The notes under the pieces: model-generated
Told to the model about the DNA's origin: nothing
What the model saw: the letters and a program-made list of their open reading frames with translations, nothing else
Database searches by the model: none
Translations under genes and position numbers: made by a program
Origin: Nannocystis bainbridge
GTDB taxonomy: Bacteria > Myxococcota_A > Polyangia > Nannocystales > Nannocystaceae
Reading direction: 5' to 3'
DNA: 64,000 bases
NCBI RefSeq assembly: GCF_028368995.1
Contig: NZ_JAQNDL010000002.1
Location: 960,001 to 1,024,000 of the forward strand
In this document: positions 2,125 through 62,179 of the stretch, piece after piece
Position numbering within the stretch: position 1 is the stretch's first letter
How the letters are laid out: every line of letters begins with the position of its first letter

Positions 2125-2302
2125 TCGTCGCTAGCGACGTTGCACGGGCGTCATCGACGTCGTGGCGCGTCGCTGCGGCCGTCGTTCGCCGCTTCGGACG
2201 CCGTTGCGCGCGTTCGTCGGGCGCGGGGGCGCGCGCGCATTTTCAAGGCGTGTCCCGAGGGACAGGTTGCGACCGGGCCGGCGAACGGGAATACTCGAGC
2301 GA

Positions 2303-3865
2303 ATGATGCGGCTCGCGTCAGCGCATTTGGCTTTGTGGCTCGGATTCGGCGGCCTGCTCGGGGTCGCCTGCACGGGCTCCTCCGGGACGACCACCGAGAG
2401 CTCCAGCTCGTCCACCGGCAACACCGAGTGCCTGGTCGGCAGCGTCGGCTGTGCGTGCACGCCGGGCGGCACCTGCGACGGCAACCTCGTGTGCGCCTCC
2501 AAGTATTGCGTCCCGCTCGAGGACACCACCGGCGTCACGTCGACGGACACGAGTCTGCCGACCACCGGGACCGACACGGCCGGCGAGTGCGAGCCGGGCG
2601 AAGGCCAGCCGAACCCGGCGTGCAGCAGCCCCGCCGAGCCGTACTGCAGCGGCAACGGCGAGTGCGTCGATTGCAGCGGCCTCGCGAGCTGCGCGGTCGT
2701 CGATCCGGCCACGCCCGCGTGCGACCCGGCGACCGGCCTGTGCGTCGCGTGCACCGAGAGCGACGCCTCCGGCTGCACCGGCACCACGCCGATCTGCGAC
2801 TCGGCGCTGCAGACCTGCCAGGCGTGCACGCAGCACGAGCAGTGCACGGGCGGCGCCTGTGACCTCGAGACCGGCGCGTGCTTCCTCGCCGAGGACGCGC
2901 TGTGGGTCGCCGGCGCCGGCGCCTGCGACGACGCCGCGAGCGGCAGCGAGGCCGAGCCGCTGTGCACGATCGCCGAGGCGCTCGCGCGGGTCGAGCCGGC
3001 CACCCCGCGGGCGATCCGGGTCCGCGCCGCCGTCTACGACGAGCCGCTCGCCGTGCCCGCGGCCAGCAGCGTCGCCATCGTCCGCGCCGGCGCCGGCGAC
3101 GTCGAGATCACCGGCAGCGGCGAGGCGGCGCTCGCCATCGCCAGCGGCGCGCGCGTCTACCTCGACGGCCTCGAGATCCGCGGCAACGCGACCGGCAGCG
3201 GGGTCGTCTGCGGCGGCGGCGACCTGCTGTGGATCGAGCGCTCGCTGATCCGCGAGCACCACGTCAGCGGGGTATCGGCCAGCGGCTGCGAGGTGCGGGT
3301 GCGCGCGACCACGCTGACGAAGAACCTCGGCGAGGGCCTGTTCGTGTCGGGCGGCTCGGTCCGGATCGAGAACTCCTTCATCACCGAGAACGGCGACAAG
3401 GCCATCGCCGACAACCCGCGCGGCGGGCTCGCGCTGGCGGGCGGCGCCGCGGCCACGCTGGTCTACGTCACGCTGGTCGGCAACAACGCGTACACCGGCG
3501 GCGGTCTGTCGGTCGAGTGCGAGCCCGACATGGGCGAGGAGTCGATCAGCCTGCGCAACTCGATCGCCTTCAACGCCGTCGGCTACAGCACCTTCAATTG
3601 CGAGGGTGCCGAGGTCGTGTCGCACTCGGCGTACTCGGCCGCGACCGACGAGCCCAACGACGACAACGTCGGCGTGGCGACGGCCGAGGTGCCGATGCTC
3701 GTGACCCTGGACGTGGCGATCCCGGGCGTGTACCGGCCGAGCCCCGGCGGCAAGCTCGACGCCGTGGCGATGTTCGCCGAGGGAGACCCCGACATCGACT
3801 TCGAGGGCGACCCGCGACCGACCGACGCATTGAGCTTCCCTGGCGCGGATCAGCCCCCGCCGTGA
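2303..3865 (+). CDS. Cys-rich lipoprotein with beta-helix domain (paralog 3)
   Basis: Lipobox LGVAC. Cys block is colinear with paralog 2 (CVDCSGLASC...HEQC..GAC...TGACF). Contains ENSFITEN and C-terminal GDPDIDFEGDPRP...GAD. Confidence 0.8.
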   Translation: MMRLASAHLALWLGFGGLLGVACTGSSGTTTESSSSSTGNTECLVGSVGCACTPGGTCDGNLVCASKYCVPLEDTTGVTSTDTSLPTTGTDTAGECEPGEGQPNPACSSPAEPYCSGNGECVDCSGLASCAVVDPATPACDPATGLCVACTESDASGCTGTTPICDSALQTCQACTQHEQCTGGACDLETGACFLAEDALWVAGAGACDDAASGSEAEPLCTIAEALARVEPATPRAIRVRAAVYDEPLAVPAASSVAIVRAGAGDVEITGSGEAALAIASGARVYLDGLEIRGNATGSGVVCGGGDLLWIERSLIREHHVSGVSASGCEVRVRATTLTKNLGEGLFVSGGSVRIENSFITENGDKAIADNPRGGLALAGGAAATLVYVTLVGNNAYTGGGLSVECEPDMGEESISLRNSIAFNAVGYSTFNCEGAEVVSHSAYSAATDEPNDDNVGVATAEVPMLVTLDVAIPGVYRPSPGGKLDAVAMFAEGDPDIDFEGDPRPTDALSFPGADQPPP

Positions 3866-4010
3866 GCGCGAATTGTTGCCTCCGCGGCCAAAAAATCCCC
3901 GCGGTCACCGAGCCGGTGGCGAGTTTTCCGGTTCGGACATGGCTTTGTGGACAACTCGCGTGGCCCGGTGCATCCTGGCCACGATCCCCTTTGTGCACTA
4001 GGAGTTACCG

Positions 4011-5513
4011 ATGACCCGAACGTACTGGACCGTCGCAATCTTGGCCTGCGCGCCGCTGGTCGCCGGCTGTCCGCCGACCTACACCCCCGGGGAGACCGAG
4101 AGCGGGACCGAGACCGAGGGCGAGACGAACGAAACGTCGACCTCGACCGACACGACGCTGACGACTTCGACGTCGACCCAGCCCACGTCGACGACCGAGG
4201 CCGAGACCTCGACGACCACCACGAGCACGTCGACCTCGGAGCCGACCACCGGCACCATGGGCTGCGCCGGTGACGGCGACTGCGGCGACGCGAGCAAGCC
4301 GTTCTGCGTCGACGAGGCCTGCGTCGGCTGCGACGGCACGGCCGAGCCGGACGCCACCTGCGCCGAGGTCGACGCGGCCACGCCGGTCTGCGACATGGAC
4401 GCGGGCGCCTGCGTCGTGTGCACGCCGGACAACAAGGCCCTGTGCTCGGGCACGACCCCGGTGTGCGACGCCGCCACCAACGAGTGCGCCGGCTGCATCG
4501 AGCACGCTGACTGCCCGGACAGCGCCTGCAACGCCGAGTCGGGCGCCTGCTTCGCGCTCGAGAACGTCATCCACGTCGACAGCGCCGCCCAGTGCGACAT
4601 CGGCGACGGCACCAAGGCGCAGCCGTTCTGCCAGATCACGCAGGCGCTCGACCAGGTGGGGATGAACGACCCGTCGCTCGGCTGGACCATCAAGGTCAAG
4701 ACCGGCAACTACATCCAGCCCGCGCTGGTCGTGCCCGAGGCGAGCAACCTGGCGATCGTCGGCGACGGCGGCGTCGCCAAGATCCGCTCGACCACCGCGG
4801 CGACGCTGCAGATCAGCCCGTCGTCGAAGGTCACGCTCGGCAAGCTCAACCTCGCCAGCAACGCCGACGACTCCGGCATGACCTGCACGGGCTCGCAGGT
4901 CCTCGGCAGCGACCTGACCTTCAGCCTCAACCGCCAGGGCTACGTCGGAACCGACTGCACCGCGCACTTCAACCGCAGCGTGTTCTACAAGAACACCTCG
5001 GGCGGCCTGTCGGCGTTCGGCGCCGGCGCGACCGCGCTGGTCAACAGCTACGTGTCCAACAACGGCTCCAACGCCGAGTCCAACTACGGCGGCGTGCTGA
5101 CCGGCCAGGGCCACGAGCTCAGCCTGATCTACTCGACGGTGGTCAACAACCTGTCCGAGGTCGGCGCGCGCTCGCTGCTGTGCATGCCCGACGCCGGCCC
5201 GGCGACGATCCGCAACTCGGTCATCATCGCCTTCGTCGCCCCGTCGATCGACTGCGCGACCGCGACGTTCGAGAACTCCGCCATCGACGAGGGCAAGCAG
5301 GACGGCGACACCAACCTGCTCGCCGTCATGGCCGACGCGATGACGTGGTTCGAGCCGCAGGTCGGCGGCGTGTACAAGGCCAAGGCCGATACGCCGATCG
5401 CCGAGCTCGCGGTGTGGAAGGACGGCGACCCCGCGACCGACTTCAACGGCGACGCGCGGCCGGCGACCAACGAGAGCACCGACTACGCCGGCGCCGACCG
5501 CCCGGCTCCCTGA
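4011..5513 (+). CDS. Cys-rich lipoprotein with beta-helix domain (paralog 4)
   Basis: GGAG RBS upstream, lipobox LVAGC, Thr-rich linker, Cys repeats, C-terminal WKDGDPATDFNGDARP...GAD. Confidence 0.85.
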   Translation: MTRTYWTVAILACAPLVAGCPPTYTPGETESGTETEGETNETSTSTDTTLTTSTSTQPTSTTEAETSTTTTSTSTSEPTTGTMGCAGDGDCGDASKPFCVDEACVGCDGTAEPDATCAEVDAATPVCDMDAGACVVCTPDNKALCSGTTPVCDAATNECAGCIEHADCPDSACNAESGACFALENVIHVDSAAQCDIGDGTKAQPFCQITQALDQVGMNDPSLGWTIKVKTGNYIQPALVVPEASNLAIVGDGGVAKIRSTTAATLQISPSSKVTLGKLNLASNADDSGMTCTGSQVLGSDLTFSLNRQGYVGTDCTAHFNRSVFYKNTSGGLSAFGAGATALVNSYVSNNGSNAESNYGGVLTGQGHELSLIYSTVVNNLSEVGARSLLCMPDAGPATIRNSVIIAFVAPSIDCATATFENSAIDEGKQDGDTNLLAVMADAMTWFEPQVGGVYKAKADTPIAELAVWKDGDPATDFNGDARPATNESTDYAGADRPAP

Positions 5514-5557
5514 GCGGGCCTCGAGGACATGTCCTGCGGGACATGTCCTGAAAGCAT

Positions 5558-6155: not shown

Positions 6156-6425
6156 GAGCCGTCGAAGCGCCGTGTGGGGCGCCGCGCGGGCGCCCTGACG
6201 GACATGTCCCTGCGGACATGCGCATGGCGCCGGTGCCCGGCGCCATGTCCGAGAGCCTTCGAAGCGCCGTGCGGGCGCCCTGACGGACATGTCCCTGCGG
6301 ACATGCGCATGGCGCCAGCGCCATGTCCGAGAGCCTTCGAAGCGCCGCGCGGGCGCCCTGATGGACATGTCCCTCCAGACATGCACATGGCGCCATGTCC
6401 CGAGTGACATGCCCGAACGGGCAGG
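6154..6425. repeat. Three tandem ~78-97 bp intergenic repeats containing 14-bp palindromic units
   Basis: GAGAGCC(G/T)TCGAAGCGCCG starts at 6154, 6251 and 6329, each followed by GGCGCCCTGA(C/T)GGACATGTCCCT..GACATG. Junctions at 6366, 6380, 6394, 6408, 6422. Confidence 0.9.
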
Positions 6426-6427
6426 TC

Positions 6428-8230
<1,803 letters not shown>

Positions 8231-8370: not shown

Positions 8371-10230
8371 ATGGGAAAGCCCACTGCCGCGCCCGGGGAG
8401 CCTCATGGCTGGGGGATCCGCCTGTCGTTCCGCGGTCGCACGGTGGCCCAGATCGCGGCCGACGACGCCGCCCCGGTCGCCCTCGGCGAGGGCAAGGACT
8501 GCGATCTCGTACTCCCCGGTCTCGGCGAGCGCACGCCGCTGACCGACGGCGCGACCCTGATCGTCCCCGCCGGCCTCGTCGGTGAGATCCACGTCGGCGA
8601 GCGCACGCAGGCAGCGGAGGGCAGGGTGATCCTGGCGCCCGGCGACCGGGCCTCGCTGCGGATGGCGGCCCACCCGGACATCACGCTCGAGATCCAGCGG
8701 GTCACGCGCGAGCGCCTGCCGTGGTCGGCCCGCTTCCACGCCCGCGACCTGGCCCGTCAGCTCGTCACCGGGGCGGCGCTGGTCGCCATGGTGGCGCTGC
8801 TGTGGCGGGTCGAGGCGGCCGAGAACGTGCTCAAGCTGCGCGGGGAGCCGACGGCGGTCGACGACTCGCCGCTGCTGCGAGTGATGTTCGCGCCGACGCC
8901 CGAACCACTCGAGGTGGTCCGGACCCGCGAGCTGTTCCTCGCGCACCTGCCGCCGCCACCGCCGCCGGCCGCCGAGGAGCCTGGCCCGGACCTGGAGACG
9001 AGCGATCCTTCGGCGATCGCGCTGGCGCTGGGGGGCGTGGTCGAAGCCGCGGCGGTCGTGCCCGAGGAGGCGCCGGTCGAGGCGCCGCGCCCGGGCAAGA
9101 AGAAGCGCCGCAGCAAGCGCGCGCCGGATGTGGTCGAGTTCGGGGTCCTCAGCGCCTACGGCACCTTCAAGGAGGAGAGCGACGTCGCGTACCTCAGTAT
9201 GCTCGAGACGGGCAGTGATGACAGCGACGCCGTCGCGGTCCTCCGCGGCGGAGTGATCGGCGAGGGCGTCGGCGGGGGCGGCCTCGGCTACGAGGGCGGG
9301 GTGGTCGAAGGCGTCGCCGGCGGGGTGCTCGGCGGTGTCGTGCTCGACAGTGTGGCTGAAGGGACAGGTCTCGAAGAACCTGCCCCTTTGAACATGGTCG
9401 TCGGGACAGTCCATGAGATCGGTCCGAACTCGCACGCGGCGGCGGGGGCCACCGCGCCGCGCGGCGAGCTCGACGGCCTGGCGGCGGCGGTCGTCGCGAC
9501 CTCGTGCCCTGATCCCGCGATCGTGCGCAAGCAGCAGATCGACGTGGTGTTCGCGGTCGATGTGTCGACGACGATGAACTTCATGCTCGCCAAGATCGGC
9601 CGCGAGATCGCCGCGGTCGACGCGGAGGTGCGGCTCCACAACCTCGACGCGCGCTACGGCCTGGTCGTGTTCGTCGACGACGTGATGGTCACGAACGGCG
9701 GCCAGCCGTTCGCCGACCTGGCGGGGCTGCAGCAGGAGCTGACGCGGTGGCAGCGGTTCACCGCCGGCAACCGCGAGATCGGCAGCGCCGACGCCAACCT
9801 CGACTGGCCGGAGAACACGCTCGACGCGCTGCACGCGGCCGCGACCCGGTTCGCCTGGCGCGACCCGGCGACGACGCTGCGCGCGGTGGTCCACGCCACC
9901 GACGACGACTTCGGCGAGGCGCCCGCGGTGCAGAGCGGCCAGCGCGTGCAGCACGGCTACGGCGAGACGGTCACGGCCCTGCGCGCGGCCGAGGTGCGGG
10001 TGTTCAGCTTCGCGGCCAAGGTCGGCGGCCAGTGCGAGTGCCTCGACGTGCGCGCCGGGCTGTTCGCGCCCTACCGCGGGCAGCAGGCGATCCCGGCGGC
10101 GACCGGCGGGGCGGTGTTCGACATCGACGAGGTCGCGTCGGGCGCGCTGAACTTCGGCGCCGCGGTGTCGGGGGCGCTGAACTCGGCGGTCTGCACGCAC
10201 TATCCGCTCTCGCCATTCGCCGGCAAATAG
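8371..10230 (+). CDS. Membrane-anchored protein with C-terminal von Willebrand A domain
   Basis: One TM segment (LVTGAALVAMVALLW), Pro/Gly-rich linker, MIDAS-like IDVVFAVDVSTTM, YGLVVFVD, PENTLDAL, VVHATDDDF. Confidence 0.7.
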   Translation: MGKPTAAPGEPHGWGIRLSFRGRTVAQIAADDAAPVALGEGKDCDLVLPGLGERTPLTDGATLIVPAGLVGEIHVGERTQAAEGRVILAPGDRASLRMAAHPDITLEIQRVTRERLPWSARFHARDLARQLVTGAALVAMVALLWRVEAAENVLKLRGEPTAVDDSPLLRVMFAPTPEPLEVVRTRELFLAHLPPPPPPAAEEPGPDLETSDPSAIALALGGVVEAAAVVPEEAPVEAPRPGKKKRRSKRAPDVVEFGVLSAYGTFKEESDVAYLSMLETGSDDSDAVAVLRGGVIGEGVGGGGLGYEGGVVEGVAGGVLGGVVLDSVAEGTGLEEPAPLNMVVGTVHEIGPNSHAAAGATAPRGELDGLAAAVVATSCPDPAIVRKQQIDVVFAVDVSTTMNFMLAKIGREIAAVDAEVRLHNLDARYGLVVFVDDVMVTNGGQPFADLAGLQQELTRWQRFTAGNREIGSADANLDWPENTLDALHAAATRFAWRDPATTLRAVVHATDDDFGEAPAVQSGQRVQHGYGETVTALRAAEVRVFSFAAKVGGQCECLDVRAGLFAPYRGQQAIPAATGGAVFDIDEVASGALNFGAAVSGALNSAVCTHYPLSPFAGK

Positions 10231-14174: not shown

Positions 14175-14181
14175 ACCCGCG

Positions 14182-14269
14182 CCTGCCCGATCGGGCAGGT
14201 CCTCGCGGACATGTGTGAACAGACAGGACCCGAGGGCCATGGCCTTCGGGTCCTGTGCTTTCGGGCAGG
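14182..14269. repeat. 14-bp-phased palindromic array (7 junctions)
   Basis: CCTG 14182, CAGG 14196, CATG 14210, CAGG 14224, CATG 14238, CCTG 14252, CAGG 14266. Confidence 0.9.
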
Positions 14270-14582
14270 TCGTCGCGCCCGCGATCCCATGAGCGGTCGA
14301 TGCTCCGGTGGGCCGTACCGAGGGGGTGAGCCAGCTCGCTCGCGCGGCGAAGGTGACGATGGCAGGGGCGCTGGTTCGCCCTCGGGCGGCTCCCCACGGC
14401 TCATCTTCGACCGATGCGCTCGCGCGGACTGCCGGTCGGCGCGCCTGTCGCTTCGGACATGTCCCGCAGGGCTGCCGCGCGGAGCCGACGGGCGCCGCTG
14501 CTGAGGGGGGGCCCCAGGGACCTGGTCCATCGGACATGGCCCGAAGGCCAGGGTCTTCGGGCCATGTCGCCCGGCGCGGAGG

Positions 14583-15227: not shown

Positions 15228-15425
15228 GATCGCGTCAGTGGGTCGACCGAAGGCCAGCCGGATGGGAGGCTGCTGGGTCTGTCGGCGTGACACGCGGCGC
15301 ACGAGGGCTGGCCGCTGAACTTCCTAGGTAAACTCTATTCAAAATTCGATCACACTCGGCTCCGATGCAAGGATCCAGATTCGCACAGGACTCTGGGGTA
15401 TCTCGCGCGCTCCTGTCCGGCGGTC

Positions 15426-20137: not shown

Positions 20138-20171
20138 AACGGGCATGTCCTCGCGGACATGCCCGTTTTTT
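20138..20171 (+). terminator. Rho-independent terminator after valS, built from 14-bp palindromic units
   Basis: AACGGGCATGTCC-TCGC-GGACATGCCCGTT-TTTT. Confidence 0.8.
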
Positions 20172-20345
20172 CATGTGCGAAAGGACATGTCGTGAAGGGC
20201 ATGTCTGATAGGACATGCCAGAGGTCGACGGCGAGGGAATGACGGGGGCTCACGAGCGCCGCGGCGCGAGGTCGCGGACCGGCGAGCGCCGCGGATCGTC
20301 AGCGAGTTCGAAGGTCGCGGCGTCGCGCTCGCGCCGGCGCGGCGC

Positions 20346-32525: not shown

Positions 32526-32600
32526 TTGCCGCGCTCCCCGGGGCAGTCAGGCCAGCCGCGCGAGGTCGGGGTCCGGCGGCGAGAGGGCTGGTTTAATCAC

Positions 32601-39410: not shown

Positions 39411-41689
39411 TCGACCTCGCATTGACGGGCATGCGCTGTGCCAACTGCGCCCAGACGATCGAGCGCGCGCTGGCGCAGGTGCCCGGGGTGTCGGCGGCGC
39501 AGGTCAACTTCGCCAGCGAGACCGCCTCGGTCGCGCTCGCCACCACGACGCCGGCGAGCCGCGGGGCGCTGGTGGCGGCGGTCGAGGCCGCGGGCTTCGG
39601 GGTGATCGCCGGGGCCGACGCGACCGACCTGTCCGTCGAGACAGCCGCGCGCGCGGCTGAACTCCGGGCCAGCTGGCGCCGCTTCATGGTCGGCGCGGTG
39701 TGCACGGCCCCGCTGATGGCGATCAGCATGGCCCGCGATTTCGGGGTCATCGGCGACCGGCCATGGCTGTTGTGGCTGCTGCTGGCGCTGACGCTGCCGG
39801 TGCTGGCCTACACCGGCGGGCCGCACTTCCGCGGGGCCGCGCGGGCGCTGCGGGCCGGTCGGGCCAACATGGACGTGCTGGTGGCGCTCGGGGCCGGCGT
39901 GGCGTTCGTCGCCAGCGTGCCGGTGGTGCTGGCGCCGGCGTCCGGGCACCACGTGTACTTCGAGACAGCCGCGGCGATCGTCACGCTGGTGGCGCTCGGC
40001 CGCCTGCTCGAGGCGCGCGCCCGCGGCCGCGCCGGCGAGGCGCTGCGCTCGCTGCTCGAGCTGCGGCCGCGCAAGGCCCGGGTGATCCGCGACGAAGTCG
40101 AGGTCGAGCTGCCGGCCGAGGCGGTCAAGGTCCGCGACGTGGTGGTGGTCCGCCCCGGCGAGGCCATCCCGGTCGACGGTCGCGTGATCGCGGGCGAGTC
40201 GGCGGTCGACGAGAGCGTGCTGACCGGCGAGAGCCTGCCGGTGGCCAAGGAGGTCGGCGACGCGGTGGCCGGCGGGACGATCAACGGGCCGGGGCTGCTG
40301 CGGCTGACTGCGACGCGCGTCGGCGCCGCCACGGCGCTGTCGCAGATCGTCCGCCTGGTGCGCGCGGCCCAGGCCAGCAAGGCGCCGGTGCAGGCGCTGG
40401 TCGACAAGATCGCGGGGGTGTTCGTGCCGATCGTGGTCGGGCTGGCGCTCCTGACCTTCGGGGCGTGGCTACTGGTCTCGTCGCACGGGGCCGAGCACGC
40501 GCTGATGCGGGCGGTCGCGGTGCTGGTGATCGCGTGCCCGTGCGCGCTCGGGCTGGCGACGCCGACGGCGATCGTGGTGGCCACCGGCGCGGCCGCTCGC
40601 CGCGGGCTGCTGTTCAAGAACAGCGCGGCGCTCGAGGCGGTGCGGGCGGTCCGGGTGGTGGTGTTCGACAAGACCGGGACGCTGACGCTCGGCCGGCCGC
40701 AACTGCAGGCGATCACGCCGGCGCCGGGCGTCGATGAGGACGAGCTGCTGACGCTGGCGGCCGCGGCGGAGCAGGGCAGCGAGCACCCGCTCGGCCGCGC
40801 GATCGTGGCGGCCGCGAAGGCCCGCGGGGCCAGCCTGACGAGCCCGACCGGGGTGCGAGCGATCGGCGGGCGCGGGCTGCGGGCGCTGGTGGGCGACGCG
40901 GAGGTGTGGATCGGGACGCGGGCGTGGCTGACGGCGCAAGGGGTCGCCATGGATCTGGCCGAAGAGCCACCTGTATCTTGGGACATGTCCTCTGGCACAG
41001 GTGACAAAGAACATGTCGCTCCGGGCATGTCCGTAAAGACCGCCGATGCCGGTCACACGCGCGTGTACGTGGCGCGCGACGGGCGGTACCTGGGCGCCAT
41101 CGCGCTGGCCGACGCGCCGCGGCCGGAGGCGCGCGAGGTGGTGGCGGCGCTGCGCGGGCAGGGCTTGCGGGTGGCGCTGCTGACGGGCGACCGGCGGGGG
41201 ACGGGGCTGGCGATCGCGGCGGCGGTCGGCATCGACGCGGCGGACGTGTACGCGGAGGTGCTGCCGGCCGACAAGGTGGCGACGGTCGTGGCGCTGCAGC
41301 GGACCGGGCCGGTGGCGATGGTGGGCGACGGGGTCAACGACGCGCCGGCGCTGGTGCAGGCGGACGTCGGCGTGGCGATCGGCAGCGGCACCGACGTCGC
41401 GGTCGACGCCGCCGACGTGACGCTGCTGCGCAGCGACCTGCGCGGGCTGCTCGACGCGCTCGCCATCGGCAAGGCGACGGTCCGCACGATCCGCCGCAAC
41501 CTGTTCTGGGCCTCGGCCTACAACCTGGTGCTCATCCCGGTCGCGGCCGGCGCGCTGTACCCCCTGAGCAGCTTGCCGACGTGGCTGCGCGCGCTCGATC
41601 CGGCGCTCGCGGCCGGGGCGATGGCGCTGTCGAGCGTGACGGTGGTGGTGAGCAGCCTGGCGCTGCGGCGGGTCGCGGCCGAGCGCTGA
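39371..41689 (+). CDS. copA: Copper-translocating P1B-type ATPase
   Basis: GMRCANC HMA domain, [35 protein letters not shown] and MALSS Cu+ motifs. Confidence 0.93.
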
Positions 41690-43489: not shown

Positions 43490-43732
43490 GCGCCGCGTCG
43501 GCGCGGTCGCCGAGCGCCGCGTCGGCATGAGCTTCTGGGCATGTCGCATGAGACATGTCCTTTGGGGCATATCTCGGGGCGCCGCGGTCCGGGGCCGGCA
43601 GGCTTCCTCACGACCGGGCGGTGAAACCTCGGACGTCCTTCGGCGCGTCGGCGGGGTGGCCTGCTCGCTGCAGAGCGGTCCGATCGGGGAGCGAACCACC
43701 GGGCCGCGATTTCGCCTACGATCGACCTCGTG

Positions 43733-47218: not shown

Positions 47219-47264
47219 AGGTACATGTCCGTTCGGGAATGTCCGAACGGACATGTCCCGCGCG

Positions 47265-52875: not shown

Positions 52876-55292
52876 TGGGCGCGCTGGCGGCGACGCTGCT
52901 CCCGGCGGCGGTCGGGCTCGCGCTCGTCGGCCTGGTCGGGCCGCTGGAGCGCCGCTGGGGCGCCGCGGCCGCCAGCGCGACGGCGGCCCGCGCGGCCCTG
53001 GTGGCGGCGGTGCTGGCCTGCCTGGTGCTGTGGCAGGCGATCCAGCGCGACCAGCTCGAGCACCGCCTGGCGTGGATCCGCGTCGGCCGCACGACCACGA
53101 TCGACTGGATCGTCCAGCTCGACGGGCTCGGGCTGGCGCTGGCGCTCGTGAGCCTGGCGGCGCTGGGGCTCGGGGTGGTGGCGATCCTGGCCTTCGGGAC
53201 AGCCGGCGGCGGACGCCCTGGCGCCCGCGTGGTCGTGGCCGCCGGCGGGGCCCTGGTGCTGGCGAGCGGCGGGACGCTGGTCCAGCTGGGGCTCGGGGTC
53301 GGGCTGTGCGTGCTGGCTCTTCGAGCATGGCCGATGGACCATGTCTCTTCAGACATGACTGTACGAGCATGGCCTGTGGACCATGTCTCCACGGACATGA
53401 CCGAGAGGGCATGGCCGTTGGGTCTGGTGGGCGCGGGCCTGTCGCTGGCGATCCTGGCCTGGCTGGCGGCCGCGGGCGACTTCGACCTGATGCGGCTCGA
53501 GCGGTCGACGCTGGCGCAAGACGGGTCGCAGCTGGTGCGCGGCGAGATCGGCGGGCCGCTGTTCGGCTGGCCGCCGGGCGTGGTAGCGACCGTCAGCGTC
53601 GGCGCGGCGGCGCTGGCGTGGATCGGGGCGTGGCCGCGGCTGGTGGCGCGAGCCTGGGCCGAGGGGCCCGGGCCGGCGCTGGTGGCCACGTGCGCGGCCG
53701 GGCCGGCGCTGACCGTGGTGCTGCTGCGCACGCAGGTGGCGCTGGCGATGGCCCCGACCGCGCTGGCGCTGGTCACGGTGGCGGCGGCGGGCACGGCGGC
53801 GTGGGCGGGGCTGCAGGCGGCCCGGGCCGGCACGAGCGCGCGGGCGGTGGCGAGCGGGACGGCGGCGACGCTGGCGATCGCGACGGCGACCATCGCCATC
53901 GGCGAGCCGATCGCGGCGACCCAGCTGCTGCTGGCGGGCAGCCTGGCGTGGGCGGCGATGATCGCGGGGCTGCAGGCGCCGCGGCGGCTGCGGGCCGGCG
54001 TCGCCGGGCTGGCGGGGCTGGGCCTGATCGCGGGGCTGGGACCGGCCGTGGCGGGGCTGTGGAACGACCTCAGCGCGTGGTCGAGCGGGATCAACGTCGT
54101 CGCGCCGGCGCTGGCGCTGGTCACGGTGACGGCGACGGCCTGCGCGATCGGACATGTCCTCACGGACAGGACCGATGCGCCAGGTTGGCGGCAGCCCGAG
54201 GCGCCGCCGCTGCTGTCCGGGGTAGCCATGCTCCTGGCGCTGGGCGCGGTGGCGGCGGGGCTGTGGCCGCTGGCGCCGCGGATCTGGCAGCAGTTCGTGG
54301 CCGGCCGCATGTTCGAGGGGGCCTACGCCCTGGGGCCGCGACCGGACGCGTGGTTCGTCGGGCCGTGGCTGGGGATGGGGCTGGTGGCGGTCGCGGTGGC
54401 GATCGGGCTGGGGCTGGCGCCGCGGATCCGCCCGGCCCCGGCGCGCACGCGCAGGCGATCCGCGGGCGCCGCGGGTCCGACGATCCCGCGGCTGCTGCGG
54501 CTCGGCGAGCGGCTGGTGGCGCGCCTGACCTTGTGGCCAGGTGACGAGCGGGTGACGGTCGCGCCCGGCCGCTTCGATGTGCGCGGGCCGCTGCTGCTGA
54601 CGAGCGCCGGGGTGCTGGCGATCCTCGGCTCGGTGTTCTGCAACCCGGACGTGGTGGTGCTGGGCCCGACGCGTGTGCACCCGGTCGACCTGGGGGGCCT
54701 CGACGCGGCGATGGCGGGGGCCCGCCGCGGGACCGGGGCGGCGACGCCGAGCCCCGCCGGGCCGGCCGGGGCGCCAGCAGGACAGGGCGAGGACATCGGC
54801 CCGGCGCCGCTCGGCGGCGTCGATCGGGCTGGCGGCGCGGACATGCTCGAAGGGGTAGGCGCTGCGCAGCGAGGCGAGACGGCTGGTGGATCGAACATGC
54901 CCGAAGGGGCAGGTTCGCAGGCGTCGTCGGGCGCGCACGGAGCTGGTGGATCGGACATGTTCGAAGGAGCAGGTTCACCGGCGCCGACAGGTGCGCGTGG
55001 AGCTGGTGGATCGGACATGCTCGAAGGGGCAGGTTCACCGACGCCGACGGGTGCGCGCGGAGCTGACGGACCGGTCATGCTCGAAGGGGCAGGCGCTCGG
55101 ACGCCGACGAGCGCGCCTGGAGCCGCCGGCGCGGGCGCGCCCGACGGGCCCGGCTCGCAGGCGCGTGGAGCTGGTGGATCGGACATGCCCGAAGGGGCAG
55201 GTTCGATGCGACATGGCGCGATGGACATGTCCGAAGGGTCAGCGAGCCCGCGCCCCGGGGATACCGGCGCGGCGGCGGGAGGGCGCCCATGA
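52875..55292 (+). CDS. Degenerate NuoL-like antiporter subunit with repeat C-terminal tail
   Basis: WIRVG...LDGL, LVLA...GVGLC, AWAEGPGP...LLR resemble NuoL motifs. 60-bp repeats at the 3' end. Confidence 0.65.
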   Translation: MGALAATLLPAAVGLALVGLVGPLERRWGAAAASATAARAALVAAVLACLVLWQAIQRDQLEHRLAWIRVGRTTTIDWIVQLDGLGLALALVSLAALGLGVVAILAFGTAGGGRPGARVVVAAGGALVLASGGTLVQLGLGVGLCVLALRAWPMDHVSSDMTVRAWPVDHVSTDMTERAWPLGLVGAGLSLAILAWLAAAGDFDLMRLERSTLAQDGSQLVRGEIGGPLFGWPPGVVATVSVGAAALAWIGAWPRLVARAWAEGPGPALVATCAAGPALTVVLLRTQVALAMAPTALALVTVAAAGTAAWAGLQAARAGTSARAVASGTAATLAIATATIAIGEPIAATQLLLAGSLAWAAMIAGLQAPRRLRAGVAGLAGLGLIAGLGPAVAGLWNDLSAWSSGINVVAPALALVTVTATACAIGHVLTDRTDAPGWRQPEAPPLLSGVAMLLALGAVAAGLWPLAPRIWQQFVAGRMFEGAYALGPRPDAWFVGPWLGMGLVAVAVAIGLGLAPRIRPAPARTRRRSAGAAGPTIPRLLRLGERLVARLTLWPGDERVTVAPGRFDVRGPLLLTSAGVLAILGSVFCNPDVVVLGPTRVHPVDLGGLDAAMAGARRGTGAATPSPAGPAGAPAGQGEDIGPAPLGGVDRAGGADMLEGVGAAQRGETAGGSNMPEGAGSQASSGAHGAGGSDMFEGAGSPAPTGARGAGGSDMLEGAGSPTPTGARGADGPVMLEGAGARTPTSAPGAAGAGAPDGPGSQARGAGGSDMPEGAGSMRHGAMDMSEGSASPRPGDTGAAAGGRP

Positions 55293-56830
55293 GCGTGCTG
55301 GCCGACCTGCGGCTCCTGGCGGCGCTGCCGTGGCTGGCGGCCCTGGCGGTGCTGCTGCTGCCGCGGCGGGCGGCGCGGGCCTGCGCGCTGACGGCGACGG
55401 GGCTCGGGGTGCTCGCGGCGCTGGCCTGCTCGGCGGGCGCGCCGGCGATCGAGGTGGAGTGGCTCGGCCGCGGGGTCGCGCTGCGGCTGACGTCGGGCCC
55501 GCTGGCGGCGTTCGGGCTGGTGGCGACGGCGGTCGCGGGGCTGCTGGCGGTGCTGGAAGAGGAGACGCGCGGCCGCGGTCGACTGGCCGGGCTGCTGGCG
55601 CTGCTCGGGACGGTGCTGGTCGGGCTCCTGGCCGGTGACGTGCTGGTGCTGGCGGCCGCGTGGGCGCTGGCGCCGGCGCTGGTGCTGGGGCTGCTGGCCG
55701 CGCGCGCGAGCGAGGCGGAGGGCCGGATCGCCGGGCGAGCGCTGGCGCTGCTGCTGTCCCTCGGGGCAGGTGCGGTGCTGCTGGTCGGGGCCGGGCTGGC
55801 GGTGGCGCACCGCGGGGCCAGCAGCGGCACATGGAGCGCGGCGCTGACCGGGCTGGCGAGCGTGCGCGTGCCCGAGGCGGCGGCGACGGGGCTGGCGGGG
55901 GCGCTGGCGCTGGCGTGCGCGCTGGCGATCGGGCTGTGGCCGCTGCACGCGGGGCTGGTCGAAGGGACAGCCGTGGGCTCGCGCGGGACGACCCGGCTGC
56001 TGGCCGGGCCGGTGCGCTGGCTCGGGCTCGACGCGCTGATCCGGCTGTGGGCGCCGCTGGTGCCGCTGGGCGCGGCCGCGACGGCGCCGTGGCTGGCCGG
56101 GCTGGCCACGCTGGGGGCGATCTACGCCGGACTTTCGGCGCGCGTCGAGCTCGACCCGGAGCGGCGCGCGGCCCGGATCGCGCTGGTCGGCTGGAGCGTG
56201 GCGACCGTCGGGGTGGCCACGCTGACGCACGAAGGGCTGAGCGGGGCGCTGCTGCTCGCGGTCGTGGCCGGGCTCGGGCAGCCGGGGCTGGCGCGGGCCG
56301 AACCGATCGCGCGGGTGGTGCTCGGCCTCGCCGGCGGGCTGGCGGGCGGGCTGGTGATCGTCGCGGCGCTGCGCCCGGCCGCGCTGACGCTCGGGGCGCT
56401 CGGGCCGTGGTGCGCCTGCGGGGCCGCGCTGGCGCTGGGGCTGGCGGGTTCGGCGATGGCCCGCGGGACAGGTATCAAGGGGCATGTCGCCAGGGACATG
56501 GTGAAAGCGACAGGTCCTTCAGGGCATGTCGCGCAGGACATGGCGGATACGACAGGTCGCGCGGGACATGTCCCCGGGCGCTGGTCGACGGCGGCGCTGG
56601 TGACGGTGGTGGCGGTGGCGATCGCCCGACCGAGCCTGGTGCTCGGGCGCCTCGACGAGGCCGGCGAGGCGTGGGTCCGCGCGAGCGCGCTGCAGCGCTG
56701 CCTGGCGCTGGTCGACCCACGCATCGTGGCGGTGCTGCTGCCGCCGGTGGCGCCGACCCGCTGCGAGTCGCCGCTCGCAGGGCTGCGCGCGGGCAAGGCG
56801 ATCGCGGCGGAGGCGGAGGGCCAGCGATGA
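55289..56830 (+). CDS. Degenerate NuoM-like antiporter subunit
   Basis: LLAGDVLVLAAAW, LWPLHAGL, LLAG, LGAIYAGL, EGLSGALL resemble NuoM. Confidence 0.65.
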   Translation: MSVLADLRLLAALPWLAALAVLLLPRRAARACALTATGLGVLAALACSAGAPAIEVEWLGRGVALRLTSGPLAAFGLVATAVAGLLAVLEEETRGRGRLAGLLALLGTVLVGLLAGDVLVLAAAWALAPALVLGLLAARASEAEGRIAGRALALLLSLGAGAVLLVGAGLAVAHRGASSGTWSAALTGLASVRVPEAAATGLAGALALACALAIGLWPLHAGLVEGTAVGSRGTTRLLAGPVRWLGLDALIRLWAPLVPLGAAATAPWLAGLATLGAIYAGLSARVELDPERRAARIALVGWSVATVGVATLTHEGLSGALLLAVVAGLGQPGLARAEPIARVVLGLAGGLAGGLVIVAALRPAALTLGALGPWCACGAALALGLAGSAMARGTGIKGHVARDMVKATGPSGHVAQDMADTTGRAGHVPGRWSTAALVTVVAVAIARPSLVLGRLDEAGEAWVRASALQRCLALVDPRIVAVLLPPVAPTRCESPLAGLRAGKAIAAEAEGQR

Positions 56831-57021: not shown

Positions 57022-58739
57022 TCGAGGCGGTGGTGCCGTTCGGATCGGCGGCGATCGTGGGGCTGTGGGGCGTGCTCAGCTTGCTGGCGGCGCGGGCGGG
57101 GCAGCCGGCGGGGCTCGGGCGGCTGGCGCTCGGGCGGGCGGTGCCGGCGGGCGGATTGGTGCTCGCGCTGGTGACGGCGCTGGCGGGCCTGACGGCGCCC
57201 GATCTGGTCGGCGAGCTGCAGGCGCGCGGGGCCGTCGTCGTCGATCGCCTGGCGGCGCTGTTCGACGCGTTGCTGGTGACGGTGCTGCTGGCGGCGGTGA
57301 TCGCCGATCCACGGCCGGGCTCCGAGCCGCGCGCGGTGTGGGGGCGCGGGATGCTGCTGCTCACCGGCGCGGGGGCGATGCTGGCGGTGCGCGCGGCCGA
57401 CTGGGCCAGCCTGGTCGTCGGGCTCGAGCTGGCGACGCTGGCGGCCGGGCTGTGCCTGGCGGCCGGTCGTGAGGGTGAGGGCGAGGGCGCGACCGAGGCG
57501 GGGCGCGAGTCGGCGCGGACCTGGCTCTTGGGACAGGGTCTGGGCGCGGCGTCGCTGTGGCTCGGGGCCGGTCTGTTGATCGCGGCGACCGGGACGGTGC
57601 GGCTGCACGAGCTCGGGGCGCGGGTCGGCGCGGCGTTCTTGCGCTGGGGCGCCAGCACCACCCAGGCGGCGGTCGACGTGCTTCAGGCGAAGGAGGCGAT
57701 GCCGGCCGGGCTGATCGCGCACGCCCGCGACGCGGCGGTCGAGGGCATGGCCCCGGCTGCCCTGTATGTGCCGGGCGCGCTGCTGGTGCTGGCGGGGCTG
57801 CTGGTGCGCGCGGGGGTGTTCCCGCTGCTGGCCGGGCGCACGCGGGTGGCCGGGCGCGCGGGGCTGTGCGGCTGGGTCGCGACGGAGCTGGTCGTGAGGA
57901 CAGCCGCGGTGGCGGCGCTGATCCGCGTGTTCGTGGCGGCGCTGCATACCCCGCGGGTGGTCTACGCGCCGTACGGTTGGGGCACGGCGGCGGCGGTGGT
58001 CGGCGGGGTCGCGGTGGTGGTGTGCGGGCTGCGGGCGGTGCGGGCCGCCGATCTGCGGCGCCTGCTGGCGTGGGCCGGCGCGGCGCAGGTCGGGATGACG
58101 CTGCTGGCGATCGCGGCGGCGGCCAACTTCGTCGCCCACGCGGGGCTGCGCGCCGGCGGGCTCGAGGTCGCCGATCATTACGTGTGGGGCCACACCGCGG
58201 CCGAGGCCGCGGTGGCGGCGGCGGTGTTCGGCCACGCGGTGTTCGCCCTGGCGGCGATGACGGCGATGGCCGCGGCGGCGGCGGTCGAGGCCAACCGCGG
58301 GCTGGTCGACCTGACCGGCGCGGTCCGGCGCAGCCCGGTGCTGGCCGGGGCGCTGGTGGTCGCCGCGCTGACGCTGGCCGGGGCGCCGCCGACGGCCGGG
58401 CTGGCCGGGCGCTGGTGGTGGTTCACGGCTGTGCTCGAGGACAGCAACGTGTTGGTCCGGGTGATGGCAGCCGCGGCGGCGGTCGGCAGCGCGCTGGTCG
58501 GCTGGGCCTGCCTGCGGCCGCTGCTGGCGGCGCTGACCCCTGCGCCGGGCGGGACGGGGTCGACGGCGCGGCCGCGGCGCGGGGCGCTGGTAGTGGCGGC
58601 TGTGCTTTCGGGCATGCTCGTGGGGGCAGGTCTCTGGGCACATGTCGCATGGGACATGGTCCAAGAGGCATCCGCGGGGATCGCGTTCCAGGCCGGCAGC
58701 AAGGGCCGCCGCGAGTGGCTCGGCCGCGCGACGGAGTGA
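57018..58739 (+). CDS. Divergent NuoN-like antiporter subunit
   Basis: VVDRLA, DWASLVVGLEL, RESARTWLLG, RAGVFP, DLRRLLAW, LTLAGAPPTAGLAGRW. Confidence 0.78.
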   Translation: MIEAVVPFGSAAIVGLWGVLSLLAARAGQPAGLGRLALGRAVPAGGLVLALVTALAGLTAPDLVGELQARGAVVVDRLAALFDALLVTVLLAAVIADPRPGSEPRAVWGRGMLLLTGAGAMLAVRAADWASLVVGLELATLAAGLCLAAGREGEGEGATEAGRESARTWLLGQGLGAASLWLGAGLLIAATGTVRLHELGARVGAAFLRWGASTTQAAVDVLQAKEAMPAGLIAHARDAAVEGMAPAALYVPGALLVLAGLLVRAGVFPLLAGRTRVAGRAGLCGWVATELVVRTAAVAALIRVFVAALHTPRVVYAPYGWGTAAAVVGGVAVVVCGLRAVRAADLRRLLAWAGAAQVGMTLLAIAAAANFVAHAGLRAGGLEVADHYVWGHTAAEAAVAAAVFGHAVFALAAMTAMAAAAAVEANRGLVDLTGAVRRSPVLAGALVVAALTLAGAPPTAGLAGRWWWFTAVLEDSNVLVRVMAAAAAVGSALVGWACLRPLLAALTPAPGGTGSTARPRRGALVVAAVLSGMLVGAGLWAHVAWDMVQEASAGIAFQAGSKGRREWLGRATE

Positions 58740-58887
58740 CGGCCCGAGATCCAGAGGGTCATGACCGGAGGCGGTCATGACCCTTTGAACATGTCTCGAT
58801 GAGCATGTTCAAAGGGGCATGTCGTACGCGCGAAGAGGCCCGCGGGCGCAGGGCGCCGGCGGGCCTCTCGCGGGGCGCGGGTGAGGA

Positions 58888-60719: not shown

Positions 60720-61105
60720 GGAGGCGTAGCGAGTCTGGCAGAGGGCGGCGAGGACGGCGAGGCGGTCGGGCGCGGCACCCGTCACTCGCCCTGCGGAGCC
60801 GTGGACTGCCGCTCGACGCAGGCGGTCGAGAGGGGCCGGGCTTCGAGCCGAGCTCGGCGGGCCGCGAACAGCATCCGGGGATGCTGCGCCGCGCGAGGAG
60901 CACGCCTCGAAGCGTGGCCTCCGCGGCGAGAGCGTCGCTTCGCGGCGAGAGCGTCGCTCCGAGGGCATCACGCAGCGCCTCGCGAGAATCACTCCCCGAA
61001 GCGTCGCCACCGCGGCGAGAGCGTCGCCGCGAAATCACTCCTCGGTTGGCCGGCGCAGGCGGCCCAGCGTTGCCTCACCGCCGCGCCTTCGCTGCGCTCG
61101 CGGGC

Positions 61106-62122
61106 TCAGGCGAGGCCGACAGCGCGGCGGCAGCGGTCGATCGTCGCGCGGGCGATCGGGCGGGCGCGGGCGGCCGAGGCCTGGAGGACGGCTTCGACCT
61201 CCTCGGGGTGCTGCAGCAGGTGCTCGCGGCGGGCCCTGGCGGGGGCGAAGTGGGCGTCGATCTTGTCGGCCAGCAGCATCTTCGCGTGGCCGTAGCCGAA
61301 CGGCTGACCGTCGCGCGCGCCGGCGCGGTACCAGTCGGCGATCTGGGCCAGCTCGGCCTCGCCCGCGAGCAGCTTGAGCAGCGCGAACACGTTGCAGGTG
61401 TCGGGGTTGAGCGGCTGGCCGAGCGGCGTCGAGTCGGTGACGATCTGGCCGACCAGCTTGCGCAGCTTCTTGCCCGACTCGAACAGCGGCAGGGTGTTGC
61501 CGTAGCTCTTGGACATCTTGCGGCCGTCGTTGCCGGGCACGATCGGCGCGGTGCCGAGCAGCGCCTCGGGCCGGACGAGCAGCGGCGGGCCGCCGGCGGC
61601 GTAGGCCTCGTTGAGGTAGGTCGCCATGTCCTGGGCGAACTCGACGTGCTGCAGCTGATCCTTGCCGACCGGCACCAGGGTGCCGTCGTAGATCAGGATG
61701 TCGGCGGCCATCAGCAGCGGGTAGTTGAAGAGGCCGGCGTTGGGCTTGATGCCCTGGGCGAGCTTGTCCTTGTAGCTGGTGGCCCGCTCCATCAGGCCCA
61801 GGCCGGTGACGCAGGCGAGCAGCCAGGCGAGCTCGTGGACCTCGGGGATGTCGCTCTGGCGGAACAGCACCGCCTTGGCTGGATCGAGGCCGAGCGCCAG
61901 GTAGGTGACCGCCGCGTCGAACACGTTCTGCCGCAGCGCCGCCGGGTCGCGCAGGGTCGTCAGCGCGTGGTAGTCGGCGATGAAGTAATAGGCCGCGCCC
62001 GGGTAGCGGTCCTGCAGCGCGATGTGCTGGGCGATCGCGCCGAAGTAGTTGCCGAGGTGGAGCACGCCCGAGGGCTGGATGCCCGAGAGCACGCGCGGGG
62101 CAGGGGATGGCGCTTGGGACAT
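61106..62122 (-). CDS. trpS: Tryptophan--tRNA ligase
   Basis: SGIQPSGVLHLGNYFGA, YPLLMAADIL, VPVGKDQLQH, KMSKSYGN. Confidence 0.97.
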   Translation of the reverse strand: MSQAPSPAPRVLSGIQPSGVLHLGNYFGAIAQHIALQDRYPGAAYYFIADYHALTTLRDPAALRQNVFDAAVTYLALGLDPAKAVLFRQSDIPEVHELAWLLACVTGLGLMERATSYKDKLAQGIKPNAGLFNYPLLMAADILIYDGTLVPVGKDQLQHVEFAQDMATYLNEAYAAGGPPLLVRPEALLGTAPIVPGNDGRKMSKSYGNTLPLFESGKKLRKLVGQIVTDSTPLGQPLNPDTCNVFALLKLLAGEAELAQIADWYRAGARDGQPFGYGHAKMLLADKIDAHFAPARARREHLLQHPEEVEAVLQASAARARPIARATIDRCRRAVGLA

Positions 62123-62179
62123 GGCGCTTGGGACCTGTCGGAAAGGACCTGTCGGAAGGGACCTGTCGAAAAGCTCAGG
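62106..62179. repeat. 14-bp-phased array filling the serS-trpS intergenic region
   Basis: GATG 62106, CATG 62120, CCTG 62134, 62148, 62162, CAGG 62176. GGACCTGTCG occurs three times. Confidence 0.9.

Follow-up and report, generated by a model that had tools for sequence, protein, structure and literature searches.

We analysed a window of 64 kb of the genome of the soil myxobacterium Nannocystis bainbridge (the whole stretch of DNA considered here), in which tandem arrays of a short palindrome lie between and within genes. The repeat unit is a 14-bp inverted repeat, TGYCC-N4-GGRCA, that starts with TG and ends with CA. Abutting units create a second palindrome, of 10 bp, at the junction where GGRCA meets TGYCC, and each whole array is therefore self-complementary (consensus GGRCATGYCC followed by N4). 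Within the unit, the junction core RCATGY is kept best. The window encodes 16 perfect TGTCC-N4-GGACA units, against ~0.06 expected from base composition (the genome expectation of exact units scaled down to 64 kb). A preliminary description of this DNA gave coordinates for 13 of them, all of them correct; the three additional ones are at 6290, 29869 and 29917. The same description listed 16 arrays in exact 14-bp phase. Printed in rows of 14, all 16 keep the register, but five include degenerate junctions (CAGT in the array at 9365; CATA at 43526; AATG, TAGG and CAGC at 47224; CATC at 58613; GATG at 62106). In the other 11, every counted junction is CATG, CAGG or CCTG.

Gene positions were taken from a custom crude gene caller. 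A 2-unit doublet (5516..5557, including the perfect unit 5530) comes immediately past the stop of gene 4011-5513, and a 5-unit array (6363..6432) abuts minus-strand gene 6428-8230 at its stop codon; a 78-85 bp direct repeat at 6193-6395 contains further units. The 7-unit array 14179..14276 begins 5 nt past the stop of gene 11493-14174, is found in all five relatives compared, and has an RNA fold of -64.5 kcal/mol (z -5.65). Four units (14518..14573) adjoin the stop of the convergent minus-strand gene 14583-15302 and are kept in relatives, where the mid-gap sequence is not alignable. An array of six units with only CATG junctions (20141..20224), 24 nt past the stop of gene 17367-20117, forms one long hairpin over its entire length (-50.1 kcal/mol, z -7.16). 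Further downstream, 3-4 units (43523..43578) lie 34 nt past the stop of gene 41786-43489, and a 3-unit array (47221..47262) fills the 46-bp gap between two convergent genes. The latter has a 15-bp perfect stem (-28.7 kcal/mol, z -5.66) and one 14-bp unit gap in the cross-species alignment, and units beyond it extend into the 3' coding end of gene 47265-48878. The convergent gap following gene 56976-58739 contains four units (58773..58828). Between two minus-strand genes, a 5-unit array of a CCTG-type variant (62103..62172) differs by -14, +14 and +28 bp in relatives and folds weakly as RNA (z -1.18). The 6-unit array 32597..32680 lies downstream of a 36-bp tandem repeat, close to where a sulfatase-domain gene probably starts.

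Other arrays lie in open frames. An array of 3-4 units (9362..9417) is within the open reading frame 8443-10230, which has the same coding frame on both sides, and one of 8-10 units (31634..31745) shows a 42-bp super-period, its junctions following the order CCTG, CATG, CAGG. A CopA-like P-type ATPase gene (39371-41689) contains five units in frame (40967..41036), at a loop of its nucleotide-binding region. This site is hypervariable across the genus: with its in-frame copies the loop spans 51-372 bp, versus 45 bp in other genera. The 7-unit array 53323..53420 and the 8-unit array 56466..56577, both in open frames, are each exactly 42 bp (three units) longer here than in four relatives, and the 4-unit array 58610..58665, within the 3' end of gene 56976-58739, has equal length in four relatives. 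Our scan added a 4-unit array (55181..55236) that was absent from the earlier list, which in turn contained a weak but real array with four junctions (54139..54181) below our scan threshold. Finally, five CTGTCY-N4-GGACAGG-like single units (29732..29990) occur in a probable coding region. Four have perfect arms, with a CTGTCT variant at 29965-29990, and the ones that the repeat finder grouped are spaced by 48-126 bp, always a multiple of 3.

Abundance and placement in the genome

The autocorrelation peaks predicted at 14, 28 and 42 bp are present in both window and genome. In the window, C[AC][TG]G pairs number 157, 108 and 91 at these lags (42-81 at other lags), and CATG pairs 35, 28 and 22 (0-8 at other lags). 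In the genome we counted 3736, 2073, 1586 and 751 CATG pairs at lags 14, 28, 42 and 56; lags other than multiples of 14 gave 62-476. The genome-wide scale proposed for the unit was borne out: the 11-Mb genome has ~1604 arrays of 3-13 units and its reversed-sequence control has one. Array size falls steeply past 6-7 units, with 225, 90 and 16 arrays of 6, 7 and 8 units. The phased 14-bp arrays are real and far above chance. Period-15 tiling gave four perfect matches in 11 genomes, two of them inside the ATPase insert of a single genome (G008), and is an exception tied to the reading frame.

The exact unit TGTCC-N4-GGACA occurs 1987 times in the genome (~9.5 expected), and the enrichment is restricted to N4, the N3 and N5 versions having 16 and 5 copies. 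We found 2828 exact copies of TGYCC-N4-GGRCA (117 expected), of which 1670 have no recognisable neighbour unit; the density of exact units is ~0.26 per kb. Single units are flanked by CC...GG or CA...TG, and with these flanks the palindrome is 18 bp long. Flank covariation at single units is modest, limited to the -1/+1 positions, and probably stems from array remnants mixed with genuine single units. Spacer tetramers are strand-symmetric and biased to YYRR; the symmetry is more in line with a DNA-level feature than with an RNA loop.

The arrays track stop codons and shun the divergent gaps that bear promoters. This classic REP arrangement was overlooked in the preliminary description. We found 568 arrays in convergent gaps (1131 gaps), 593 in tandem gaps (3024) and 85 in divergent gaps (1248), with a median distance of 19 nt between array and facing stop codon. 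In gaps of 200-1500 bp, 54% of the arrays are at most 40 nt from the upstream stop, versus 16-17% under uniform placement, and only 6-7% are near the downstream start. Convergent gaps of 40-300 bp contain an array in 421 of 865 cases. At least 185 arrays are inside genes, single units are ~8-fold enriched in coding DNA, and the enrichment of exact units there concerns all three frames (1061 in deep coding). Neither the intragenic arrays nor the coding enrichment of single units is explained by a terminator role.

Taxonomic range and comparison with known repeats

The element is present in 10 of 11 Nannocystis genomes, and a survey beyond the genus found it in none of 30 genomes of other genera of the same class. 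A search of 185,579 species genomes gave one hit outside the genus, on a Nocardiopsis contig; it is a plain perfect 14-bp tandem repeat and not a member of this palindrome family. Viral contigs gave no exact 3-unit match, and in public reads the stretch was present in soil-metagenome contigs only. Contigs from four DNA runs were short and of low depth, and yielded no usable array length variants or transcripts. The arrays are a genus-specific family, found only in Nannocystis among the genomes searched.

REP/BIME units are imperfect palindromes of 20-40 bp, and BIME-2 are clusters of such units with fixed short linkers. The Nannocystis arrays resemble REP/BIME (REPINs, Enterobacteria, Pseudomonas) in their high copy number and their extragenic location 3' of convergent or tandem genes, with some intragenic copies, and resemble BIME-2 in clustering at fixed short spacing. 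However, their unit is only 14 bp (18 bp with flanks), is self-symmetric and tagless, and abuts its neighbours without linker in strict 14-bp phase. Whole arrays form long hairpins. The position matrix has neither a GTAG nor a CGTC tag, in agreement with the earlier claim of no GTAG match. We found no Y1/RAYT transposase (PF01797) in the 11 Nannocystis genomes (completeness 64-91%), in a search that was positive in 6 of 14 control genomes and in 8 of 20 genomes of other genera. Neither a MITE nor a cassette is supported: the 204 single genes bracketed by two arrays include no recurrent transposase or nuclease family, and their largest cluster has six members, from a Cys-rich lipoprotein family of 30 paralogues.

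The available sections of Di Nocera et al. 2013 (PMC3733652) describe REPs as short high-copy palindromes, mostly between convergent or same-direction genes and 3' of coding regions, with some intragenic, and present CGTC-type REPs as lacking a dedicated transposase, their way of forming being unknown. The Nannocystis element is likewise REP-like and without a cognate transposase in the genome, but differs from CGTC-type REPs in tag and unit size, and its units run head to tail in a single phase whereas REPs, in those sections, are paired in opposite orientation. Neither 'Myxococc' nor 'Deltaproteobacteria' occurs in the text of PMC3733652. A literature search, including passages of the N. exedens genome note, found no description of the element.

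Three further groups share some traits with the arrays. Rickettsia palindromic elements (RPE) are single insertions of ~100-150 bp, in frame inside protein-coding genes. In both cases in-frame palindromic repeats add peptide segments in tolerant loops, but the Nannocystis units are of 14 bp, change in 42-bp steps and are mostly intergenic. The cyanobacterial HIP1 is a lineage-specific, dispersed 8-mer palindrome, over-represented in coding and non-coding DNA, with no known generator; it is not a split inverted repeat, and is not known to form phased arrays or to be tied to gene 3' ends. The suggestion that the unit is HIP1-like holds only for its enrichment inside genes; the bulk of the signal consists of phased arrays at 3' ends. 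DUS/USS inverted pairs and the TRIT motif of M. tuberculosis are genus-specific hairpins 3' of genes, acting as terminators without U-tracts or poor in them. They share with the arrays the genus-specific, repeated hairpin motif just 3' of genes, but are single hairpins and not phased polymers. The element looks like a so far undescribed kin of the hairpin-forming intergenic repeats known from other bacteria.

Folding, turnover and possible roles

Three of the four window arrays tested fold with z from -5.7 to -7.2. Neither the folding of whole arrays as long hairpins nor their surplus of compensating changes figured in the preliminary description. Between junctions of the same array we counted 2279 compensating deviations, versus 1904 +/- 42 in shuffled data, and real arrays fold at -30.7 kcal/mol versus -27.9 with junctions swapped (p 7e-8). 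Arrays hold more internal complementarity than the consensus alone gives, although the compensating deviations could stem from template-switch correction of quasi-palindromes and not from selection. Covariation is absent between neighbouring arms (WC 0.468 vs 0.440 expected) and between the two halves of a junction, and swapping spacers did not significantly weaken folding (p 0.09). In 398 oriented arrays, 676 arm mismatches could pair as G-U in the sense RNA and 476 are of the opposite kind, and array-free 3' regions have no matching skew. This asymmetry is one of base frequency in the two arms and not of pairing, and could correspond to a transcription-linked mutation bias. The arrays are not canonical intrinsic terminators: hairpins are present but the U-tract is absent, TTTT occurring within ~30 nt downstream in only 1.5% of the oriented arrays. 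One 11-kb stretch of the window (11000-22000) shows no enrichment of canonical terminator-like sites, with four (2.5 +/- 1.6 when shuffled), none of them at arrays. Hairpin energies of array-present and array-free convergent gaps are uninformative, because nearly every 44-nt window of this 73% GC DNA folds below -15 to -20 kcal/mol. At the gathering score, Rfam matched no array family in the whole window, its only match being a tRNA (49072-49145).

Arrays persist at given gene ends while their unit number changes. At orthologous gene ends in five relatives, 40 of 52 keep an array where the genome carrying the window has one, and 3 of 96 have one where it has none. Arrays adjoining stop codons align across species, but the middle of the same gap does not. 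Length changes by 14-bp steps, and by 42-bp steps inside genes. Near-identical units inside genes are found at lag 3 (8%) and hardly at lags 1 and 2 (0.6% and 0.3%); in intergenic gaps the three lags are alike (3.3-3.9%). Identical spacers occur at unit lags 1-3 at ~3 times the chance rate. A rough estimate suggests that duplication of one to three units could account for the observed turnover, and a rough model that combines ~36% non-orthologous units with neutral change recovers the identity seen between species at each position. Given the whole-unit length differences and the repeated spacers, the earlier argument against slippage was overstated, and the special unit-adding mechanism once invoked is not needed; none was found.

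We give a probability of about one half to the reading of the arrays as a REP/BIME-like fold-back element that has no RAYT, lies at gene 3' ends and grows by slippage. The role of REP/BIME in other bacteria is, in our best reading, filled by differently built, genus-specific hairpin repeats. The arrays would be transcribed at the end of the upstream mRNA and fold into long, bulged hairpins, which may terminate transcription with no U-tract or stop 3' exonucleases. Growth and shrinkage would occur via slipped-strand or template-switch events between the 10-bp junctions, and such junction-to-junction events would preserve the 14-bp phase without a dedicated enzyme. Intragenic copies would be tolerated by-products, changeable only in 42-bp (14-codon) steps.

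The lattice of a dimeric protein that had been proposed is a possible but rather doubtful alternative. A genus-specific protein would read the 18-bp palindrome C(A/C)TGTCC-N4-GGACA(T/G)G on double-stranded DNA, neighbouring sites sharing the self-complementary CATG, which would give the 14-bp tiling, with three sites spanning four helical turns. Arrays would then mark gene ends as insulators, roadblocks or supercoil-management sites; gyrase and IHF act at E. coli BIMEs. The strict N4, the absence of arm covariation and the strand-symmetric, YYRR-biased spacers speak for this part of the proposal, as do the flanks of single units, the steep size drop beyond 6-7 units and the conserved presence of arrays at given gene ends. 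Yet the analysis turned up no candidate protein. The surplus of compensating deviations, and folding beyond what the consensus gives, point to pairing of nucleic acid, and conservation of the outer arm positions between species does not exceed that of 4-fold sites (0.68-0.79 vs 0.80). Thousands of degenerate units would bind poorly. The lattice and the fold-back element are mutually compatible, and E. coli REPs have been reported both to bind proteins and to fold back.

It is unlikely that the arrays are a function-less palindromic minisatellite, in which units with intact 10-bp junctions duplicate by slippage faster than mutation destroys them, and selection against insertions elsewhere leaves copies only at the 3' ends of genes and in protein loops that tolerate them. 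Such a minisatellite agrees with the lack of covariation between neighbouring arms, the fit of the rough model, the repeated spacers, the differences in unit number between species, the variable ATPase loop and the lack of a cognate gene. But the proximity to stop codons exceeds what promoter avoidance alone would give (54% vs 16%), 40 of 52 orthologous ends keep the array though the mid-gap is lost, about one short convergent gap in two has an array, the sharp size limit is unlike unbounded slippage, and the seeding of new loci is left unexplained. A more speculative proposal, which we regard as improbable, is that the 18-bp palindromes, tiled at 14 bp, mark about half of the convergent ends for a genus-specific factor that ends or insulates transcription, with this factor or the fold-back DNA adding units, including the in-frame 14-codon insertions. 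Least probable is a molecular drive, by a DNA-uptake signal (Neisseria DUS, Haemophilus USS-like) or HIP1-like methylation with biased short-patch repair, that piles up the motif wherever tolerated while slippage makes the arrays: it is consistent with the restriction to the genus, the three-frame coding enrichment, the well-kept RCATGY core and the gene-end paired inverted copies that resemble DUS pairs, but to our knowledge neither uptake sequences nor HIP1 form phased tandem arrays, exact units are less dense than DUS, and most of the signal is in 3'-end arrays.

The arrays show that a REP-like family need not have a RAYT transposase in order to exist and to last throughout a genus; the self-complementary geometry of its junctions keeps the phase by itself. 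They provide a clean natural case of a DNA-level repeat reshaping proteins in 14-codon steps, can serve as a Nannocystis genus marker in metagenomes, and are probably a source of assembly breaks and gene-calling errors. If a factor does read them, they would constitute a sequence-coded system dedicated to transcription termination or insulation in a high-GC genome without U-tract terminators. More broadly, the arrays may help to account for gene ends in myxobacteria of very high GC content, which have few U-tract terminators.

Unit, period and taxonomic range

The repeat unit is a split palindrome of 14 bp, TGYCC-N4-GGRCA, with TGTCC-N4-GGACA as its perfect form. The 13 perfect units listed in the preliminary description are all present in the window, and three more (at 6290, 29869 and 29917) bring the number to 16. 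The 16 arrays of abutting units reported there all keep a single register when written in rows of 14. The junctions, i.e., the tetramers where two units meet, were all CATG, CAGG or CCTG in 11 of these arrays, whereas the other five include one to three degenerate ones. Autocorrelation of CATG gave the predicted peaks at 14, 28 and 42 bp (35, 28 and 22 pairs in the window; 0–8 at other lags). The N. bainbridge genome (11.05 Mb in five contigs, 71.5% G+C, against 72.9% in the window, G000:C3:960001-1024000) contains 3736, 2073, 1586 and 751 CATG pairs at lags of 14, 28, 42 and 56, compared with 62–476 at lags not divisible by 14.

The arms of the perfect unit were found 1987 times in the genome around a spacer of four bases (about 9.5 expected), 16 times around three and five times around five, so that enrichment is limited to N4. 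The position matrix derived from the units reads GGRCATGYCC, followed by four variable bases. Arrays begin with xCTG on the left and end with CAGx on the right, and lone units are often CCTGTCC-N4-GGACAGG. Hence, the unit is a split inverted repeat, as initially described, and CATG is the meeting point of two units. A periodic scan with the matrix identified 1604 arrays of at least three units in the genome and a single one in the reversed genome. There were 607 arrays of three units, 351 of four, 305 of five, 225 of six, 90 of seven, 16 of eight and six of nine, the longest array having 13. Sizes thus form a plateau at four to six units and fall sharply beyond seven, which is not expected from simple slippage.

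Using a pattern of 2.3 units with up to two mismatches, we found 255 matches in N. bainbridge and 6–102 in nine of the ten other Nannocystis genomes; the remaining one is 64% complete. The same pattern had no match in the 14 other genera examined within the family, nor in 16 genomes from other families of the class. The survey of Nannocystaceae proposed in the preliminary description therefore finds the element in Nannocystis and not in those 14 genera. An exact three-unit pattern matched 13 loci in 185,579 species genomes, 12 of them in Nannocystis records. The remaining locus lies on a Nocardiopsis contig and was rejected as a family member, being a perfect simple tandem repeat. The viral contigs searched gave no match. 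Abutment at 14 bp is genus-wide (perfect two-unit match in 10 of 11 genomes), and 15-bp spacing gave four matches in total in these genomes.

Placement relative to genes

Genes were called by codon-usage score (7308 genes, 83% of the genome), which makes the following gap-class counts approximate: 568 arrays lie in convergent gaps (1131 gaps of at least 42 bp), 593 in tandem gaps (3024), 85 in divergent gaps (1248) and 358 inside called genes. The quartiles of the distance to the facing stop were 4, 19 and 95 nt, and those to the facing start 49, 180 and 371 nt. In tandem gaps of 200–1500 bp, 54% of the arrays were at most 40 nt from the upstream stop (16–17% under uniform placement) and only 6–7% lay close to the start of the downstream gene. 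For convergent gaps of this length, the shares near the respective stops were 38% and 33% (21% expected), and 421 of the 865 convergent gaps of 40–300 bp carry an array. TTTT followed just 1.5% of arrays on their 3' side, and canonical terminator-like sites were not enriched in the single 11-kb stretch scanned (window 11000-22000; 4 vs 2.5 ± 1.6 in shuffles). No Rfam family matched the arrays; the sole Rfam match in the window is a tRNA gene (49072-49145, minus strand).

Array loci are stable across species. We took gene ends with at least two junction hits within 90 nt after the stop as array-bearing: the orthologous ends of the 11 such ends of N. bainbridge also had junction hits in 40 of 52 cases in relatives, compared with 3 of 96 for the 22 array-free ends. 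In the gap at 14175-14582, each convergent gene has its own array beside its stop in all six genomes, and the middle of the gap is unalignable. The convergent gap at 20118-20345, adjoining the six-unit array at 20141, has 3.4–4.1 kb of extra DNA in all five relatives, probably by loss of a segment in N. bainbridge or gain in the other five. In another Nannocystis genome (G010), the gap orthologous to 47219-47264 contains an additional membrane-protein gene (about 0.66 kb) between two arrays.

The intragenic copies are genuine. In 185 of the 358 arrays, one and the same open, well-scoring frame continues from one flank across the array into the other. The exact TGYCC-N4-GGRCA unit occurs 2828 times in the genome (117 expected), including 1061 occurrences deep in coding DNA that use all three frames (596, 361 and 104). 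The clearest case is a CopA-like P-type ATPase (39371-41689; E1-E2_ATPase, Hydrolase and HMA domains), where a five-unit array (40967-41036) is translated within a loop. Between conserved flanks, this segment spans 45 bp in two other genera, 102 bp in N. bainbridge, and 51, 366 and 372 bp in the Nannocystis genomes G010, G001 and G006. It spans 111 bp in G008, where the units are spaced at 15 bp and the reading frame is therefore preserved. The insert (at about 40950-41050) is hypervariable, in frame and built of units, with a repeat layout that differs in each Nannocystis species. Single CTGTCC-N4-GGACAGG units at 29732-29990 are 48–126 bp apart, always by a multiple of three, which suggests a protein repeat around the unit, like the ATPase insert of G001.

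Turnover of arrays and search for a generator

Synteny with five relatives extends over the whole window (about 81–93% identity across long aligned segments), and arrays differ between species by whole units. The array at 62103 shows differences of -14, +14 and +28 bp, the one at 47221 has an alignment gap of one 14-bp unit in G001, and the intragenic arrays at 53323 and 56466 are exactly 42 bp longer in N. bainbridge than in all four alignable relatives. Within genes across the whole genome, near-identical units, alike in at least 12 of their 14 bases, make up 8% at a lag of three units, 0.6% at one and 0.3% at two; in gaps they make up 3.3–3.9%, similarly across lags 1–3. This accounts for the 42-bp super-period. 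Neighbouring spacers were identical in 139 of 3752 pairs (48.6 ± 6.6 expected), and more than 95% of the pairs differ.

Across 249 units aligned between N. bainbridge and relatives, identity was 0.84–0.94 in the CATG core (inflated, since these units were picked for consensus match in N. bainbridge), 0.68–0.79 at outer arm positions and 0.53–0.65 in spacers, with 0.80 at 4-fold degenerate sites. By our own arithmetic, with no fitted model, the values of the three unit classes are all reproduced if about one third of the units are non-orthologous and change is neutral otherwise. Arrays that keep phase while their interiors diverge, a combination that had been taken to argue against slippage, can therefore be explained by the duplication and loss of one- to three-unit blocks.

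Several other repeats were noticed. A 36-bp tandem repeat (32262-32525; 7.3 copies, 89% identity), unrelated in sequence to the unit, immediately precedes the array at 32597 and is absent in G003, the only relative mappable there (the other four were unmapped). A 45-bp tandem repeat (28323-28574), of about five copies and with 90- and 135-bp higher-order periods, lies 3' of the gene at 27523-28224. In G007, G001 and G005, the stretches orthologous to 43490-43768 and 58740-58890 form higher-order tandem repeats of about 110–130 bp, each with one hairpin or two-unit doublet (e.g., CCTGGYC-TTCG-GGRCAGG variants).

The element resembles REP/BIME repeats, as described in PMC3733652, in where it lies, in its high copy number, in occurring inside genes as well and in its potential to form hairpins. 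It differs from them in unit size and in its linker-free, self-phasing geometry, and it lacks two of their defining features: it has neither a GTAG nor a CGTC tag, and a search for Y1/RAYT transposases, positive on controls, found none in the 11 Nannocystis genomes. The initial view that the unit does not match REP/BIME holds for the tag; the REP-like placement after stop codons had been overlooked. The 204 genes bracketed by two arrays include no recurring family. Their largest cluster comprises six of 30 paralogues of a secreted Cys-rich lipoprotein without Pfam match (G000:C3:1628158-1629111 and 29 others), where about one would be expected from the genome-wide rate. We found no published description of the element in the literature searched, including the N. 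exedens genome announcement.

Folding and possible function

Simple hairpins are disfavoured by several results. We found no arm covariation across N4 (Watson-Crick 0.468 vs 0.440 expected) and none between the halves of junctions, spacers are strand-symmetric, and swapping spacers between arrays had no significant effect on folding energy (-23.97 vs -23.40, p 0.09). Fold-back of the whole array is favoured by others. Three of four folded window arrays form long hairpins (z -5.65, -7.16 and -5.66; -1.18 for the fourth), junction pairs of one array show complementary deviations more often than when junctions are shuffled among arrays (2279 vs 1904 ± 42), and real arrays fold better than those rebuilt from random junctions (-30.7 vs -27.9, p 7e-8). 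Reverse-complement spacers are also enriched at lags of one and two units. Junction pairs with the same deviation are in excess too (2767 vs 1973 ± 46), which reflects duplication. In 398 arrays with a clear sense strand, arm mismatches that could pair as G-U in the mRNA are more frequent than those of the opposite kind (676 vs 476), and array-free 3' regions have no such skew. Selection on RNA hairpins is one possible source of the complementary-deviation and G-U signals, and template-switch correction together with transcription-linked mutation is an equally possible one.

The best-placed alternative, a protein-binding lattice as in the preliminary description, seems to us unlikely. Next comes a self-renewing minisatellite without function, which we also hold improbable, and a molecular-drive motif is very improbable. 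We give a probability of about one half to a fold-back repeat that slippage maintains at gene 3' ends: the array following a gene would fold back on itself and thereby act as a transcription terminator or as an RNA stabiliser.
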